Shown: one piece after another, positions 3,615 to 61,756 of the stretch
Numbering within the stretch: position 1 is the stretch's first letter
Layout of the letters: each line of letters opens with the position of its first letter
Virus record (IMG/VR): IMGVR_UViG_3300031521_000025
Span: 32,001-96,000 of that record
Length of the DNA stretch: 64,000 nt
Source: a virus
Strand: one strand, 5' to 3'
The notes under the pieces: generated by a model
What the model was told of the DNA's origin: nothing
The model's database searches: none
What the model saw: only the letters and a program-made list of their open reading frames with translations
Position numbers and translations under genes: made by a program

Positions 3615-3666
3615 AAGAAATGCCTTAAAAAAATAATTACATTCTTGTTTTTTTAAGGCATTTCTT
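3615..3666 (+). terminator. Intrinsic terminator-like hairpin
   Basis: AAGAAATGCCTTAAAAAAA ... TTTTTTTAAGGCATTTCTT inverted repeat after ORF 3142-3594. Confidence 0.7.
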
Positions 3667-29730: not shown

Positions 29731-29835
29731 TTTTGTTTTAGTTTAAATATAAAGAAGTTAATCTGTTTTTGAGTAATTGTTAATAAAAGATAAAAAAAAA
29801 TCTTATATTTAAATTAAAAAAGTAAATTTAAAAAT
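29731..29835. promoter_or_regulatory. Divergent promoter region
   Basis: TATTTAAA on the minus strand (29742-29749) and CTTATATTTAAA on the plus strand (29802-29813) between divergent genes. Confidence 0.5.
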
Positions 29836-31471: not shown

Positions 31472-32003
31472 AAAAGTCACATTACATGATAAAAATTTTG
31501 TCTTATTTAAGACACAAGATCAAATAAACAATACAATAAAGAAAATTGCAACAAGTATAAACAGTATGAACCCTATTAATTCAGTGTTTATCCCTGTTTT
31601 AAACGGTTCTTTTATGTTTACAAGTGATTTGTGTAAAGAACTAAAAATACTTCCGGAAATTCAATTTATTAAAGTCAAATCTTATGAAGATTTTGAATCA
31701 TCTGGCAAGGTTACTGAATTAATAGGCTTAAAAGATTCTTTAGAAGGAAAAACTGTTTTTATTATTGAAGATATAGTTGATACTGGTATAACAATATCAA
31801 ATCTTTATAATAAAATTAAACTTATGAATCCTAAAGAAATTTATGTAGTTACTTTATTGTTTAAACCAGATAAATATAATGGAGGTCTTGATATAAACAT
31901 TTTATATGGTTTTTCAATTGCAAATGATTTTGTGGTTGGTTATGGAATGGATTATAATGAACTCGGTAGAAATCTTAAAGAAATTTATGTTTTAAAAGAA
32001 TAA
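31464..32003 (+). CDS. hpt: Hypoxanthine-guanine phosphoribosyltransferase
   Basis: VLNGSFMF, KSY, PRPP-binding IIEDIVDTGIT, FVVGYGMDYNELGRNL; start revised to 31464. Confidence 0.92.
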   Translation: MNKKVTLHDKNFVLFKTQDQINNTIKKIATSINSMNPINSVFIPVLNGSFMFTSDLCKELKILPEIQFIKVKSYEDFESSGKVTELIGLKDSLEGKTVFIIEDIVDTGITISNLYNKIKLMNPKEIYVVTLLFKPDKYNGGLDINILYGFSIANDFVVGYGMDYNELGRNLKEIYVLKE

Positions 32004-32051
32004 AACATAAAAAAAGAGTTAAATTTGATTTTAACTCTTTTTTTATGTTTT
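32002..32051. terminator. Bidirectional terminator between convergent genes
   Basis: AAAACATAAAAAAAGAGTTAAA ... TTTAACTCTTTTTTTATGTTTT. Confidence 0.8.
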
Positions 32052-32631
32052 ATCTTACTCTTTTTGTTTTTTTAATGGTTTTATTAATGTAGCCTTTGCC
32101 TGTAATATATGCGTCAGAACAGTCTAAAACAAAATCTTCATATACTGTTTTTCCTTTATCTTTTCCTCTAGTTACTACCCTAGTTGGAAAATAGCTTTCT
32201 CCTAATTCAGCCAAAACATAAGCAAACATCTGCTCTTTTTGTTTCACTCCTGTGTTTTTTTTCATTATAGCGGTAGGAAATGCATATTTTCTTGAATCAG
32301 TTACAGTCATTGTATCAATCTTTAATCCAAGCTTATAACAGATTAATTGATAGCCAAAATTAGCTTGACTTAATGTAGTGGTAGTTTTAGAAGAACTATT
32401 CCCTCCAAACATCGCAACAAAAGCTTCTTCAATTACAACTTCGTCAATTTCGCTATGTCTTACAAGAATATCTTCTTTCAACCACTTTTCAAACTCTAAT
32501 ACTTTTTCTAATAAAGTATCTTTTTGAGGAACAGACCAGTGACTAATTTCAATTAATTCACATGTTTCTTTACTCCATATACAAAACCCCACAGTTTTCG
32601 TAGAAGCATCCAGACTCAATAATTTTTTCAT
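32050..32631 (-). CDS. RuvC-like Holliday junction resolvase
   Basis: LLSLDASTKTVGF, VVIEE, DCSDAY acidic catalytic pattern. Confidence 0.75.
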   Translation of the reverse strand: MKKLLSLDASTKTVGFCIWSKETCELIEISHWSVPQKDTLLEKVLEFEKWLKEDILVRHSEIDEVVIEEAFVAMFGGNSSSKTTTTLSQANFGYQLICYKLGLKIDTMTVTDSRKYAFPTAIMKKNTGVKQKEQMFAYVLAELGESYFPTRVVTRGKDKGKTVYEDFVLDCSDAYITGKGYINKTIKKTKRVR

Positions 32632-32947: not shown

Positions 32948-33116
32948 TTCATTTTTCTTTTTTGCAATAATTTTATTACCACATTGTTATAAACTTTTGT
33001 GTTTGTATTTACATGCTTTAGTTATAAATTAAAAAGTTTTTTACTATTTATTTTTACTTTATTTAGAAAAAAAAACTTATATTTAAAACATAATTATTAT
33101 AAACCAATAAATAAAA

Positions 33117-34286: not shown

Positions 34287-34334
34287 CCGATTCTATATTT
34301 AAATAAAAAGAAAATATGGAAAATATAGAATCGG
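34287..34334 (+). promoter_or_regulatory. 14-bp perfect hairpin enclosing the endonuclease start codon
   Basis: CCGATTCTATATTT (34287-34300) / AAATATAGAATCGG (34321-34334); ATG 34316 lies in the loop; TATTTAAA (34296-34303) overlaps the 5' arm. Confidence 0.8.
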
Positions 34335-40404: not shown

Positions 40405-41379
40405 ATGCAAAGTAGAATTCTGTACATAGATGGCTTTAATTTGTTTCAAGCGAATTATCGCTCTAATATAGCGCTAGATACAAATGGAGAACCTATAGGA
40501 GGGTTTATTGGAGTACTACAACAATTGAGGGGGTTAATTTACAAATTTTCCCCTCAAAAAGTACTTATGGTATTCGATGGACCAGATGCAGGTTTAAGAA
40601 GAAGAAGTTTGTATAGTGGATATAAATCAAAAAGAAGAGCAAAAAAACGATGTGCTACAGTAAAATTAGGAGATGATTTGATCCAAACAGATAATGAATC
40701 AGAGCAATTAGAAAAATTGTTTAATGCTTTAAGAGTTTTGCCTGTACAATTGATTTCAGTTCCTTTTTACGAAGCCGATGATGTAATTTCTTATTTAGTT
40801 GCTAGAAACCCTGAATATAACAATATAATTGTATCTAACGATAAAGATTATTTACAAAGAATAACTGAAACTACACATGTTTATCAATTTACGAAAAAAA
40901 AATTGATGGATTTGAAAAAAGTAGAAGAAGAATTTGAAATTAATCCTAAAAATATTCTTTATTATAGATCAATAGTTGGAGATAGTTCGGATGAATTAAT
41001 AGGGATTAAAGGATTAGGTAAAGATATTATAAATAAAATATCTGCGTTTAAAGAAAGAGCTTTTGATTCTTTTGGAGATTTTTGGAGTGAAATAGAAAGT
41101 CTTGAAGAAGGGAAAAGTAAAAAAATAAAACTACTTAAAGAAAATCAACAGCAAGCTTTGTTAATGTATCAATTAATGAGATTGGATGAAACTAGTTTAA
41201 ATCAAAGAGCTATTAATTTAGTAAGATCTCAATTAGATGAACAATTAGATAAGCCTTTTTCCAGTATTGGGTTTAAAATCTTTTGCACAAAAAACAAGCT
41301 TAATATTCAGTTAAAAGATCCTGATAGTTTTTTAAGTGGGTTTTTTGCACTTAAAAGAAAAATAGAAATAAATACTTAA
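40405..41379 (+). CDS. 5'-3' exonuclease / flap endonuclease (T4 RNase H-like)
   Basis: IDGFN, VFDG, YKSKR, EADDVI, VSNDKDYLQ, VGDSSDELIGIKGLG. Confidence 0.9.
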   Translation: MQSRILYIDGFNLFQANYRSNIALDTNGEPIGGFIGVLQQLRGLIYKFSPQKVLMVFDGPDAGLRRRSLYSGYKSKRRAKKRCATVKLGDDLIQTDNESEQLEKLFNALRVLPVQLISVPFYEADDVISYLVARNPEYNNIIVSNDKDYLQRITETTHVYQFTKKKLMDLKKVEEEFEINPKNILYYRSIVGDSSDELIGIKGLGKDIINKISAFKERAFDSFGDFWSEIESLEEGKSKKIKLLKENQQQALLMYQLMRLDETSLNQRAINLVRSQLDEQLDKPFSSIGFKIFCTKNKLNIQLKDPDSFLSGFFALKRKIEINT

Positions 41380-41380
41380 A

Positions 41381-41420
41381 ATAAAACAAGCTAAAATTAA
41401 AACATTTTAGCTTGTTTTAT
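41381..41420 (+). terminator. Intrinsic terminator
   Basis: ATAAAACAAGCTAAAAT ... ATTTTAGCTTGTTTTAT. Confidence 0.7.
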
Positions 41421-41478
41421 TTATAAAACTGAGAAAAAAATTCTTATATTTAAAATGTAATTAGTTATATAAAAAAAC

Positions 41479-42810
41479 ATGCAAGAAAATAATTTAAAAA
41501 AGTTCGGTCAAGATTTTCAATTATCAGTGCTTTCTCTTTTTTTTCAAGATAAATCTTTTACAAACAAAATTAAAGATATTTTAGAACCTGACTATTTTGA
41601 TAATAAGTATTCTAAATGGTTTTGTGAAAAAGGTTTAGAATACTTAGAAAAATATATGAACTTTCCATCTTCTGTAAAGGTTTTTAATATTTTAAAAACA
41701 ATAATTGAAAAAGAAGTTGAAGAAAAAATGGCTAAAACATATCTTAGTGTTTTAGAAAAAATTTCAGAAGTTGAGTTAAGCGATAGAGAATATGTAGAAG
41801 CAGAAGTTTTTAATTTTTGTTTTACTAAATTTGCGTTAAAACAATTAGAAGAACAAAAAAATCAAATATTGTTAAACAATTTTGATGATGCAAGAAGGGT
41901 TGCTTTTAGTACATATACACCTATAGCAAAAAACAGTCAAGAGTTTTCTTTAAAAAAAGATTATAAGATTGCTTCAAAAGCCAAAGAACATTTAAATCCA
42001 ATTCCTTTTCCGTTTAAAACTTTTACAGAAAACACAAGTGGAGGTCCTGGTGCTGGAGATTTAGCTATCATTATGGCTCAATCTAACTTTGGAAAAAGTA
42101 ACTTTTTAGTTGCTTGGGCAAGACACGCGGCTGAAGTTGGACATAACGTTATTTATTTTACTTTAGAAACCAAAGGAGAGCAATTAATTGATAGAGCAAT
42201 TGCAGGGTTAACAAGAATTAACCAAGCGGAGTTAATAAACCATGAAAAATTAATTGAATCTAGGGTTAATAAAGTTTTAGGTGATGTTAAGTTTATTAAA
42301 ATAAAATCTACCTTAGCTCGAATAGAAGTAGTTAAACAAAAAATTGAAGAAGAAAAAGCAAACGGCTTCTTTCCTGATTTTGTTATAATTGATGGACTAA
42401 ATCAATTAAAAGCTTCTAAAGGTATGAATTTCAATGGAAATTCAAATGATAAATTTGAATATCTTTCTGAAGAACTTAGAGACATGGGAGAAGAATATGG
42501 AATCCCTATAGCAACCGCCTTTCAGAGTAACAGATGTTTAGCTTTAAACACTTTAGTGGATTTAAAAGATAAAGGTAAAGTTAAAATAATATCTTTAAAA
42601 GAAGGCGATGAAATTTTAACACATAAAGGGTATAAGAAAGTTACTAAAATATACCCAACAGAAAAACAGCCTGTTTATAAAATCAAGTTAAAATCTGGTA
42701 AAGAAATAATATGCTCGGGAAAACATGAGTTTCCTTTAGAAAATGGAGAATTATTAAGCATAGAAGAAGGGTTGCAGCAAGGTTTCAAACTATTGACAAA
42801 AAAAATATAG
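41479..42810 (+). CDS. dnaB: DnaB/gp41-like replicative helicase, N-extein (352 aa) fused to N-intein
   Basis: Walker A AQSNFGKS, YFTLE, VIIDG, ATAFQSNR|CLALNT. Confidence 0.9.
   Translation: MQENNLKKFGQDFQLSVLSLFFQDKSFTNKIKDILEPDYFDNKYSKWFCEKGLEYLEKYMNFPSSVKVFNILKTIIEKEVEEKMAKTYLSVLEKISEVELSDREYVEAEVFNFCFTKFALKQLEEQKNQILLNNFDDARRVAFSTYTPIAKNSQEFSLKKDYKIASKAKEHLNPIPFPFKTFTENTSGGPGAGDLAIIMAQSNFGKSNFLVAWARHAAEVGHNVIYFTLETKGEQLIDRAIAGLTRINQAELINHEKLIESRVNKVLGDVKFIKIKSTLARIEVVKQKIEEEKANGFFPDFVIIDGLNQLKASKGMNFNGNSNDKFEYLSEELRDMGEEYGIPIATAFQSNRCLALNTLVDLKDKGKVKIISLKEGDEILTHKGYKKVTKIYPTEKQPVYKIKLKSGKEIICSGKHEFPLENGELLSIEEGLQQGFKLLTKKI
42535..42807 (+). mobile_element. Split intein N-half (91 aa) in dnaB, gp41-8-like
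   Basis: CLALNT...QPVYKIKLKSGKEIICSGKHEFP; resembles gp41-1/gp41-8 N-inteins and uses an NR|S site like gp41-8 (recalled, not aligned). Confidence 0.92.
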
Positions 42811-42818
42811 TTGTTTGA

Positions 42819-42877
42819 AAAGAAAGTTGTATTTAAATATAAAATGGAAAATAAATTAAAAAAATACAACTTTCTTT
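42819..42877 (+). promoter_or_regulatory. 16-bp perfect hairpin enclosing the endonuclease start codon
   Basis: AAAGAAAGTTGTATTT (42819-42834) / AAATACAACTTTCTTT (42862-42877); ATG 42844 lies in the loop; TATTTAAA (42830-42837) overlaps the 5' arm. Confidence 0.8.
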
Positions 42878-44067
42878 GTTGTAAAAAATACAAAGATCTT
42901 GTTTTGACTAACGATCAAATTGAAGAAATAAAAAAAATTCAAGATTTTTACGGCAAGAAAAAATTCAACGATCAATGGGGTAAAATAAAACATTTAGTAA
43001 AGGCAAAATATTCTCCTGATTGGGTTGAGAAAATTATTTCTTTAAAAAAAACAAATAACTCTTCTTTAAAGTGGTTTATTGTGTTATATGGAGAAGAGGA
43101 AGGAAAATTAAAATACCAAGAAAAAAACATCAAAGTAGGAGGATCTTTAAATTCTTATATTTTAAAATATGGAAAAGAAGAAGGTTCTGAAAGATATAAA
43201 AAAGCTTGTGAAAGTAAAAAAGGTCAATCTACAGAACAATGGTATATAAATAGATATGGAGAGGAAGAAGGAAAACTAAAATGGAAAAAAATAAAATCTT
43301 CATGGAAGGAAGCTAATTTAAAAACAATAAAAGAAGGAAAAAGAAAAGGAAATGGAAGAAGTTTAAAAGAATATGTTTTAAGATATGGAGAAAAAGAAGG
43401 AGAAAGTTTATGGAGTAAAAGAAACTTGAAGCAAAGTCAAAGGTTTAGTTTGCAATATTATACAGATAAATACGGAATAAAAGATGGAAAAAATAAATGG
43501 CAAGAATATTGTAAAAAAATGGATAAAGGATCTTTACAATATTTTACGAAAAAATACGGAGAAGAAGGGTTAAACAGATATAAAGAAAGAAGTAAAGTCT
43601 GTAATTTTGGAGGCATGGGTTTAGAAAACTTAATTTTAAAATACGGAGAAGAAGAAGGGAGAAATAAATACCAAATATGGGTAAATAAAACCATGATTAA
43701 TAAAAACAAAAGTATTAATTATAGTAAAATTTCTCAAGAATTATTTTGGAACATTTACAATGAACTACCTGTAAGTTTAAAAGAAAAAGTGAAATTTGCA
43801 GAATTAAACGAAGAGCAAATGTTTAAAGTTTGGAAAAATGGAATGACTGTAATATTTGTAGATTTTAAACTTAATAAATGTATAATTGAATTTCAAGGAA
43901 CTTATTGGCATAGTTTTTTAGAAGTTCAAGAAAAAGATAAAAAAAGAATTGATTTTTTAGAAAACTATGGTTATAAAGTCTTATGTTTAAAACAAAAAGA
44001 TTATTTAAAAAATAAAATTAGCGTTACTAAAAATTGTATAGAGTTTTTACTTAAAGAAAGCAAATAA
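42844..44067 (+). CDS. Free-standing Vsr-like (EDxHD/DUF559-type) putative homing endonuclease with N-terminal tandem repeats
   Basis: Seven SL..Y..KYGEEEG...(Y/W) repeats, then SKISQELF, FVDF, IIEFQGTYWH, DKKRIDFLENYGYKVL. ATG 42844 preferred over TTG 42811. Confidence 0.8.
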   Translation: MENKLKKYNFLCCKKYKDLVLTNDQIEEIKKIQDFYGKKKFNDQWGKIKHLVKAKYSPDWVEKIISLKKTNNSSLKWFIVLYGEEEGKLKYQEKNIKVGGSLNSYILKYGKEEGSERYKKACESKKGQSTEQWYINRYGEEEGKLKWKKIKSSWKEANLKTIKEGKRKGNGRSLKEYVLRYGEKEGESLWSKRNLKQSQRFSLQYYTDKYGIKDGKNKWQEYCKKMDKGSLQYFTKKYGEEGLNRYKERSKVCNFGGMGLENLILKYGEEEGRNKYQIWVNKTMINKNKSINYSKISQELFWNIYNELPVSLKEKVKFAELNEEQMFKVWKNGMTVIFVDFKLNKCIIEFQGTYWHSFLEVQEKDKKRIDFLENYGYKVLCLKQKDYLKNKISVTKNCIEFLLKESK

Positions 44068-44068
44068 A

Positions 44069-44200
44069 ATGATTAAAGAATTAGAGCTATTAGAATTAGA
44101 TGAAATAGAAAGTATAGAGTTTTTGGGAGAAGAAGAAACTATTGATATTTGTGTAGAAGATACTCATATGTTTTTTGCAAACGACATATATACCCACAAT
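44069..44200 (+). mobile_element. Split intein C-half (44 aa) in dnaB
   Basis: DEIESIEFLGEEETIDICVEDTHMFFANDIYTHN followed by Ser+1. Confidence 0.93.
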
Positions 44201-44518
44201 TCGGGTTTCAACACAGAATACGCAGATGAACAAAGTATTGGTAAAGCAATTGAAGTATATCAAGTATGTGATTTAATGATTTTCTTTACACAATCCATAG
44301 GGATGCAAGATCAAGAAGAATGTTATGGTCAATTAATGAAAAACCGCTTAGGTAAGAAAGGGATAGCTTTAAAAATTGGATATAACCCAAATCATGCTAC
44401 TTTTGAAGAATTGGAAGTCGTTAGTAGATTAAGTTTAATGGATAAAGGAGAAAAAGGTTCTGTTTTAAGAGGAATTGATAAAATAAGAAAGCAAAATTTA
44501 GAAAGAGCTCAAAAATAA
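44069..44518 (+). CDS. dnaB: C-intein fused to helicase C-extein
   Basis: ...IYTHN|SGFNTE..., VCDLMI, LMKNRLG (arginine-finger motif). Confidence 0.9.
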   Translation: MIKELELLELDEIESIEFLGEEETIDICVEDTHMFFANDIYTHNSGFNTEYADEQSIGKAIEVYQVCDLMIFFTQSIGMQDQEECYGQLMKNRLGKKGIALKIGYNPNHATFEELEVVSRLSLMDKGEKGSVLRGIDKIRKQNLERAQK

Positions 44519-44534
44519 TTAATAAAATAAAAAA

Positions 44535-44906
44535 ATGATAAGAAAAAGAATAATAGCTATTGATTTTGATGGTACAATTTTTGAAAATGCATGGCCTGAA
44601 GTGGGAACAATAAGAGAAGATGCGGTAGAAGTTATACAAGCTTTACATGAAAATGGAAATAAAATCATTATTTGGACATGTAGAGGCGGAGAAAATTTAA
44701 AAGATGCATTAAATGCTTTAGGAAAATATCAAATCCCTTATGATGCTGTAAATGAAAACATAGTTGAGGTGAAAACTGATTTTAATCCATATCCTAAAAT
44801 ATATTATGATATTTTAATTGATGATCGAAATTTAGGTGGAGTGTTAAGCTGGAAAGAAATAGGGGAAATACTATTAAAAGAAAAAAACCCAATTAGTTTA
44901 ATTTAG
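44535..44906 (+). CDS. HAD-superfamily hydrolase
   Basis: IIAIDFDGTI, IWTCR, KIYYDILIDDRN. Confidence 0.85.
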   Translation: MIRKRIIAIDFDGTIFENAWPEVGTIREDAVEVIQALHENGNKIIIWTCRGGENLKDALNALGKYQIPYDAVNENIVEVKTDFNPYPKIYYDILIDDRNLGGVLSWKEIGEILLKEKNPISLI

Positions 44907-52313: not shown

Positions 52314-52354
52314 TTTTTTTTTCTTATTTTAAATACATAAATATCACATTTAGA

Positions 52355-61704: not shown

Positions 61705-61756
61705 AAGGTTTTTAATTGTATTTTTACTCGTTATTTAAAATACAATTAAAAACCTT
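61705..61756 (+). terminator. 20-bp perfect inverted repeat upstream of dnaE (terminator/regulatory hairpin)
   Basis: AAGGTTTTTAATTGTATTTT (61705-61724) / AAAATACAATTAAAAACCTT (61737-61756). Confidence 0.65.

Follow-up and report, generated by a model that had tools for sequence, protein, structure and literature searches.

The dnaB locus of this phage raises the question of what role a perfect inverted repeat plays around the start codon of an endonuclease gene that lies between the two halves of an essential helicase gene. The window, that is, the whole 64,000-nucleotide stretch of DNA that we analyzed, comprises bases 32001–96000 of an IMG/VR virus record of 111,457 bp with a G+C content of 27% and a completeness of ≈41% (CheckV). 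DNA near-identical to the record is present in peat and wastewater metagenomes; a megablast search of positions 41479–44518 against the phage collection returned zero matches, with no close cultured relative found. The answer that we favor, with a probability of about 0.6, is that the repeat folds into an RNA stem that blocks translation of the nuclease on RNA reading through from dnaB, and that RNA from an inner promoter, which lacks the 5′ arm of the stem, is translatable.

The locus consists of three genes, all on the plus strand. The first (41479–42810) encodes a DnaB-like helicase N-extein and an N-terminal split-intein half (Pfam DnaB_C and Intein_splicing) and ends with the stop codon TAG at 42808–42810. 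A 33-nt gap, with no terminator-like call in it, separates this N-half from a free-standing Vsr-like (DUF559/MTES_1575) homing endonuclease of 407 amino acids (42844–44067), which is followed by the C-terminal split-intein half and the dnaB C-extein (44069–44518), recognized by the C-terminal end of Pfam Intein_splicing. Both helicase halves align colinearly with a 597-aa contiguous DnaB mini-intein protein from a related viral contig (L005), in which the mini-intein is continuous and free of a nuclease and which is 74% identical to the N-half. The endonuclease belongs to the Vsr-like family by its Pfam and homologue matches: it scores 24.1 bits against DUF559 (cut-off 20.6), its tblastn matches include phage genes named 'putative VSR endonuclease', and the source annotation of its homologues is very-short-patch-repair endonuclease. 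With a Pfam order of DnaB_C plus the N-part of Intein_splicing, then DUF559/MTES_1575, then the C-part of Intein_splicing, the locus is, as judged from its sequence, a "fractured gene" as Dassa et al. 2009 use the term. The gene for the endonuclease sits inside, and is co-oriented with, the transcription unit of an essential helicase. We found no overlap between the endonuclease and the C-half, the stop codon of the former occupying 44065–44067 and the ATG of the latter beginning at 44069.

A natural variant of the locus defines what has been inserted. In a 5,072-nt contig from wastewater DNA run X11, ≈96% identical to the record, position 42803 is joined to 44090 via 13 other letters, leaving the intein continuous and in frame, and the nuclease cassette is thus polymorphic in nature. 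This contig supplies both the empty homing site and the exact limits of the mobile cassette, 42804–44089 on the plus strand, a block that takes in the hairpin with its promoter-like motif and the endonuclease ORF, together with the stop codon of the N-half at one end and seven initial codons of the C-half at the other. Because 42804–44089 is absent from a variant with a continuous mini-intein, the hairpin travels with the nuclease cassette, and the nuclease therefore brings along its own control element as well as the start codon of the C-half. The cassette-free allele and the intact mini-intein of L005 together form a before/after pair for studying the passage from a mini-intein to a split intein.

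Two further observations concern the cassette and its upstream edge. We considered whether a contig from run X6 that extends from the dnaB N-half into the nuclease represents a transcript and rejected this, as runs X6–X9 are only presumed to be RNA and, being contigs, reveal neither transcription nor where it starts; this variant has no listed change within the hairpin and hence offers no local covariation. Separately, a conserved box, TTGTGTnnCnGT, lies ≈45–55 nt before the nuclease ATG at many homologue loci (L102, L114, L123, L124, and L140 among them), immediately 3′ of the codon that ends the upstream intein half (...AAAAAATAA TTGTGT...). A similar counterpart occurs in the window at 42800–42817 (...AAAATATAG TTGTTTG). 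The box could represent either the 5′ junction of the cassette or one of the two leader motifs that Dassa et al. 2009 describe as conserved.

The inverted repeat itself lies at the 5′ end of the endonuclease gene. Its 5′ arm (AAAGAAAGTTGTATTT, 42819–42834, plus strand) begins 8 nt past the upstream stop, and its final five nucleotides, TATTT, fall within the promoter-like motif and are followed by AAAT. The 3′ arm (AAATACAACTTTCTTT, 42862–42877) covers codons 7–11 of the endonuclease and the first base of codon 12. Between them, an A-rich loop of 27 nt (42835–42861) contains ATG 42844 together with a predicted transcript start at ≈42841–42843. The arms are 100% complementary over 16 bp, exactly as an earlier reading of the sequence alone (hereafter the sequence-only reading) had described, with the ATG in the loop and the 3′ arm in codons 7–12. 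As RNA, the region 42800–42900 folds with −17.2 kcal/mol (z = −3.59), a value equaled by 1 of 200 shuffled sequences, and positions −9 to +18, the AUG among them, remain single-stranded in the predicted fold. Rfam covariance models gave zero matches at E ≤ 1 over 42600–43100. A perfect Watson–Crick stem is by itself unable to separate an RNA from a DNA role at the dnaB locus, so other evidence has to be weighed.

The position of the stem relative to the gene depends on the start codon, and here the proposed ATG is correct: 24 endonuclease homologues align at their N-termini without variation in the initial methionine, which identifies ATG 42844 as the true start. A TTG at 42811 directly follows TAG 42808 in the same frame, such that the nuclease frame continues that of the dnaB N-half. 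We considered initiation at this TTG, or read-through of the TAG, and rejected both on the strength of the same alignment. From the sequences, the shared frame is judged coincidental because the nrdJ pair is out of frame and the homologues begin at ATG; the next junction, between the endonuclease and the C-half, is likewise out of frame.

We then asked how unusual such a repeat is. Scanning the whole 111,457-bp record for perfect inverted repeats of at least 14 bp with loops of up to 60 nt, with first-order shuffles as the control, we found nine where 0.36 ± 0.66 are expected from shuffled genomes. Six of the nine are terminator-like, with loops of 6–14 nt, and all but one of these six come after a stop codon. 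A start codon is spanned by just two of the nine, which lie on the two intact free-standing endonucleases, in split dnaB and in split nrdJ; start-spanning repeats are therefore not common at the ordinary genes of this genome, the circumstance that would have undermined the idea of a hairpin switch. The nrdJ-nuclease element (34287–34334, plus strand) is a perfect 14-bp stem with arms at 34287–34300 and 34321–34334 and a 20-nt loop, and surrounds the start ATG 34316 with TATTTAA at 34296–34302. Its 5′ arm, CCGATTCTATATTT, likewise ends with TATTT and continues with AAAT, confirming the shared end point noted earlier, and at both loci the stem begins 8–9 nt 3′ of the upstream stop. The two nucleases are unrelated in sequence (E = 0.88), so the sequence-only reading was right that the same geometry recurs on unrelated nucleases, a point that was already in the literature.

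A third, start-proximal repeat lies past the end of the window at L006:2760–2837 (genome 106759–106836), where a perfect 15-bp stem encloses a 48-nt loop with two TATTTAA motifs and the 3′ arm stops 3 nt 5′ of the ATG of a 397-aa tail-fibre/collar-fibre-like gene (PHROG matches). Because a tail-fibre-like gene has it, the promoter-in-hairpin design is wider than nucleases in this phage. As a separate observation, perfect A+T-rich stems of 19–24 bp with loops of 6–14 nt follow stop codons at 32000–32053, 61705–61756, 3615–3666, and 41379–41422, and these are presumably terminators; the stem at 61705–61756, ahead of the dnaE N-half, has TATTTAA in its loop and 3′ arm.

Such stems bring up the possibility, which we consider improbable, that the dnaB-endonuclease hairpin is a terminator, an attenuator, or a nuclease-processing site for transcripts of the dnaB N-half, which transcripts from the inner motif would escape. 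Six of the other perfect stems of at least 14 bp look like terminators, five of them after stops and several then followed by TATTTAA; the onset of the stem 8 nt 3′ of the upstream stop is in keeping with this pattern, as is the U-rich composition of the 3′ arm and its flank (CUUUCUUUGUUGU). However, the 27-nt loop here (20 nt at nrdJ) contrasts with 6–14 nt in the terminator-like stems, the stem is A+T-rich with no clean T-run, and a terminator scan of 41300–44700 calls nothing. Termination at this point would moreover uncouple the two halves of dnaB, which are required in equal amounts, and among homologues the 3′ arms track the start codon and the first codons, not the upstream stop. As for processing, RNase III typically acts on stems longer than 16 bp.

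The second component of the proposed device is the promoter-like sequence at the top of the 5′ arm. The sequence-only reading had pointed to the exact 9-mer TATTTAAAT, which occurs at about its expected frequency (16 seen versus 13.4 expected); we accordingly dropped the 9-mer as a promoter element in favor of its core, TATTTAA, for which the suggestion held. This core is the most enriched upstream 7-mer, present in half of the 56 upstream regions (28/56) at 11-fold the genome rate. It lies 7–40 nt 5′ of ATGs within the consensus cTT(A/G)TATTTAAaa and has no −35 partner. The consensus precedes about half of the genes with an upstream gap (for example at 41447–41453, 33080–33086, and 29806–29812). 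The leaders of this genome are A-rich and devoid of Shine–Dalgarno sites. A scan for sigma-70 promoters was uninformative, with 14 matches against 17.6 in shuffles. On the side, a sister variant of the motif, CTTATTTTAAA, stands ahead of other genes (window positions 52330, 59990, and nearby), and several predicted leaders are shorter than 5 nt, so that leaderless mRNAs may be common in this phage.

Three copies of the core bear on the dnaB locus, all on the plus strand. The copy at 42830–42836 stands 7 nt before ATG 42844, closer than any other copy in the genome stands to its ATG; at both nuclease loci the motif shares the last 5 nt of the 5′ arm and is embedded in the perfect 10-nt palindrome TATTTAAATA, and because the latter is palindromic, the motif is present on both strands. 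A copy at 41447–41453, 25 nt before the ATG of the dnaB N-half, would act as a promoter and is the presumed source of read-through transcripts that contain both hairpin arms. The third copy (44002–44008) falls within the endonuclease ORF and precedes the C-half ATG by 60 nt. From this position it might drive the downstream half-gene, recalling the embedded promoters for downstream host genes in the T4 seg and mob genes.

TATTTAA is found ahead of genes for replication (nrdJ, dnaB) as well as for structure (baseplate, tail fibre), with no class-specific variant separable. For this reason the motif bears no mark of a late promoter, the inner promoter is not to be called "late," and a temporal switch is unsupported; the device may insulate expression rather than time it.

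We next compared the predicted accessibility of the start codons. Over the region −15 to +15, the energy needed to open the RNA has a median of 4.0 kcal/mol across 120 starts; the nrdJ nuclease ranks first (14.8 kcal/mol) and the dnaB nuclease ninth (9.4 kcal/mol). Transcript starts from the inner motifs, inferred from −10-type spacing, fall at ≈42841–42843 for the dnaB nuclease (a 1–3-nt leader) and ≈34308 for the nrdJ nuclease (≈8 nt), in both cases downstream of the entire 5′ arm. Accordingly modeled, the predicted opening energy of the dnaB-nuclease start is 9.7–13.0 kcal/mol on read-through RNA and 0.2 kcal/mol on inner-motif RNA. The corresponding predictions are 14.9–17.1 and 1.1–1.4 kcal/mol for the nrdJ nuclease and 17.1–17.8 and 1.1 kcal/mol for the tail-fibre-like gene. 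In silico, a stable structure is thereby predicted over the initiation region on the long transcripts. Opening of the segment 0 to +20 alone costs 2.8 kcal/mol at the dnaB nuclease, and the modeled repression of this gene may be partial, because the AUG is unpaired in a 27-nt loop and there is no Shine–Dalgarno site to sequester.

To see how far these features extend, we turned to the nuclease family. The endonuclease has 270 homologues at E ≤ 1e-5, with an invariant initial methionine, and from 160 homologue loci we obtained 114 non-identical nuclease starts for comparison with 283 control starts on the same contigs. A perfect start-spanning stem of at least 10 bp is present at 23% of the nuclease starts and 4% of the controls (p = 8e-9), so the architecture recurs at other nuclease loci. 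The median opening energy is 8.05 kcal/mol at nuclease starts and 5.87 kcal/mol at controls (p = 2e-7). TATTTA lies within 45 nt upstream of 48% of the nuclease starts versus 16% of the controls; for TATAAATA within the same distance the figures are 9% and 4%. These p-values overstate independence, since the homologue loci are phylogenetically related.

The homologous stems have sequences unrelated between loci and carry TATTTA(T/A) in the loop. The 3′ arm of each falls on the AUG or on the codons just after it, and the AUG itself is often paired. Because arm positions vary among homologues, we tested covariation alignment-free, by pairing the 5′ and 3′ regions of the same locus and of different loci. 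Own-locus pairing is stronger (−13.6 versus −10.6 kcal/mol, p = 6e-10), which is evidence, at the level of sequence, that the arms co-vary across the family. Strong locus-specific pairing is found in only about a quarter of the members. The closest homologues (L095 and L096) are without a strong start-spanning stem, and TATTTAA precedes the ATG in all five nearest homologues. On another viral contig (L001:897–4871), a family-B DNA polymerase is fractured by split-intein halves around a Vsr-like nuclease with an N-terminal C2H2 zinc finger; the start of this nuclease has no strong start-spanning stem and an opening energy of 1.7 kcal/mol.

These comparisons also speak to whether the repeat acts as DNA, either as a protein site or autorepression operator or through the palindrome TATTTAAATA, which might drive a divergent or antisense transcript. 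I-TevI does repress its own late promoter via an overlapping operator (PMC2988022), and the palindrome occurs at both nuclease loci with the motif on both strands; we nevertheless hold a DNA-level role to be very unlikely. Family-wide, the sense strand forms the more stable fold (sense minus antisense −2.8 kcal/mol at nuclease starts versus −0.7 kcal/mol at controls, p = 8e-5), which favors an mRNA structure over a DNA palindrome or antisense RNA. An antisense transcript starting at the palindrome would extend in the direction opposite to the AUG and leave it uncovered, and no TTAAATA lies just inside the ORF from which an antisense RNA could cross the start. The arms are 27 nt apart and their position differs from homologue to homologue, unlike a fixed operator, and by eye the hairpin does not resemble the junction of the empty site (42780–42803, the 13 letters, and 44090 onward).

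A role in RNA need not be repressive. The stem could present the AUG in an open A-rich loop, stabilize the mRNA, or be a by-product of the history of the cassette, as the unpaired AUG and flanks in the predicted fold, the low cost of opening 0 to +20, and the lack of a stem in some close homologues would allow. We give these readings, too, little credence: a perfect 16-bp repeat is far beyond chance; the architecture recurs with other sequences at an unrelated nuclease, at the tail-fibre-like gene, and in homologues; and in the homologues the AUG itself is often paired by the 3′ arm. A bound 30S subunit, furthermore, requires more than 27 nt of single-stranded RNA. The hairpin is clearly a real element under selection, and the terminator, the DNA-operator or antisense, and the non-repressive explanations all fit less well than a translational mask.

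A translational mask would operate as follows. The inverted repeat would be an RNA hairpin of a mobile endonuclease cassette inserted in the dnaB mini-intein. Long transcripts from the promoter-like site at ≈41447 would cross the N-half and contain both arms, and the 16-bp stem would close from −25 to +34 around AUG 42844, keeping ribosomes off the nuclease start. The stem should exclude ribosomes because this genome lacks Shine–Dalgarno sites and depends on open A-rich leaders. TATTTAA at 42830–42836 would serve at once as the top of the 5′ arm and as a promoter-like element, and transcripts from this inner motif, with the predicted start at ≈42841–42843, would be near-leaderless and without the 5′ arm, such that the stem cannot form and the AUG is free. 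Because only the inner transcript would escape the stem, this short RNA would be the sole source of the nuclease, whose synthesis would thus be insulated from helicase expression. From the motif and its spacing we infer both the promoter activity and the transcript start, and with them a promoter placed so that its transcripts lose the 5′ arm.

A more specific version of the translational mask, which we regard as tentative and clearly the less probable of the two, is a switch between a leaderless mRNA and a locked internal AUG, in which TATTT is both the core of the promoter in DNA and the top of the stem in RNA and which would serve at least three genes, the tail-fibre-like gene included. The inner promoter would then start transcription 1–3 nt before the AUG, and ribosomes would load directly onto the leaderless mRNA; in the long transcript the AUG would be closed off, just past the reach of ribosomes terminating upstream (8–9 nt).

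How new is a mask of this kind? The sequence-only reading had proposed a hairpin that silences the nuclease on host-gene mRNA and is released by a phage promoter, and had presented this as a convergent rule and an undescribed regulatory system. The mechanism fits the opening energies, the enrichment of the motif, and the rarity of such stems at ordinary genes, but the rule is not a new one and the system is not undescribed: Dassa et al. 2009 (NAR 37:2560, PMC2677866) reported hairpins in 15 of 16 leaders of fractured-gene endonucleases, with the same interpretation. The dnaB-endonuclease hairpin thus opens no new regulatory principle. What it adds is range: Vsr-like cassettes carry the promoter-in-hairpin mask far outside the marine T4-like phages of the first report, here into an A+T-rich peat/wastewater phage without Shine–Dalgarno sites and with a different promoter consensus. 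In practice, a perfect stem that spans a start codon and overlaps the local promoter motif can flag a mobile nuclease cassette during annotation.

The loci of PMC2677866 (gp41, NrdJ, NrdA, DnaE, and IMPDH) are the nearest likeness. There as here, a free-standing Vsr-like endonuclease is bracketed by the two split-intein halves of a gp41/DnaB-type helicase or of NrdJ, and an RNA hairpin with a promoter element stands at the 5′ end of the endonuclease gene. Ten of the published hairpins include the late-promoter element TATAAATA, whereas the element here is TATTTAA, the upstream consensus of the genome itself. Dassa et al. describe their hairpins as lying upstream of the initiation codon, whereas here the loop contains the AUG, and the 3′ arm falls within the coding sequence. 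The endonuclease and the downstream half-gene do not overlap here, unlike in 15 published loci with overlaps of 6–69 bp, a frequent and not a universal feature. Dassa et al. read their hairpins as translational control of the nuclease and linked them to the translation-limiting hairpin of Aeh1 mobE.

That hairpin (Gibb and Edgell 2007, 2009, as cited in PMC2988022) also belongs to a free-standing endonuclease that splits an essential replication-related gene. As far as that account goes, it limits translation from the host-gene transcript and has a late promoter within it, as tested experimentally, whereas the corresponding properties here are predicted. According to the same account, the Aeh1 hairpin sequesters a Shine–Dalgarno site, of which the present genome shows none; MobE is of the HNH family and the endonuclease here Vsr-like; and Aeh1 nrdA is without an intein, whereas dnaB here has a split intein.

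In T4, the structure at I-TevI forms only on early and middle transcripts, those from the late promoter being too short to contain it, and similar arrangements are known for I-TevII, I-TevIII, segB, and Aeh1 mobE (PMC2988022). The predicted behavior of the dnaB cassette matches these nucleases, in that the structure would form on read-through RNA only and transcripts from the promoter near the gene would be too short for it. The same device is found at the ordinary T4 late genes soc, e, 39, 25, and 26 (PMC2988022), so that it serves nucleases and ordinary genes in T4 as it would here with the tail-fibre-like gene. The T4 nucleases are intron-encoded or intergenic, whereas the one here lies between split-intein halves; late-transcription timing is established in T4, whereas the inner promoter here bears no mark of a late class; and I-TevI adds autorepression through an operator, for which we see no evidence at the dnaB locus. 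The present case further differs from the known ones in a 3′ arm that reaches deeper into the ORF and in a predicted mRNA that is nearly leaderless, and the AUG would be placed in the loop because there is no Shine–Dalgarno site here. With these differences, the hairpin adds one more case to a type of control that was known before from T4-type phages and from fractured genes.
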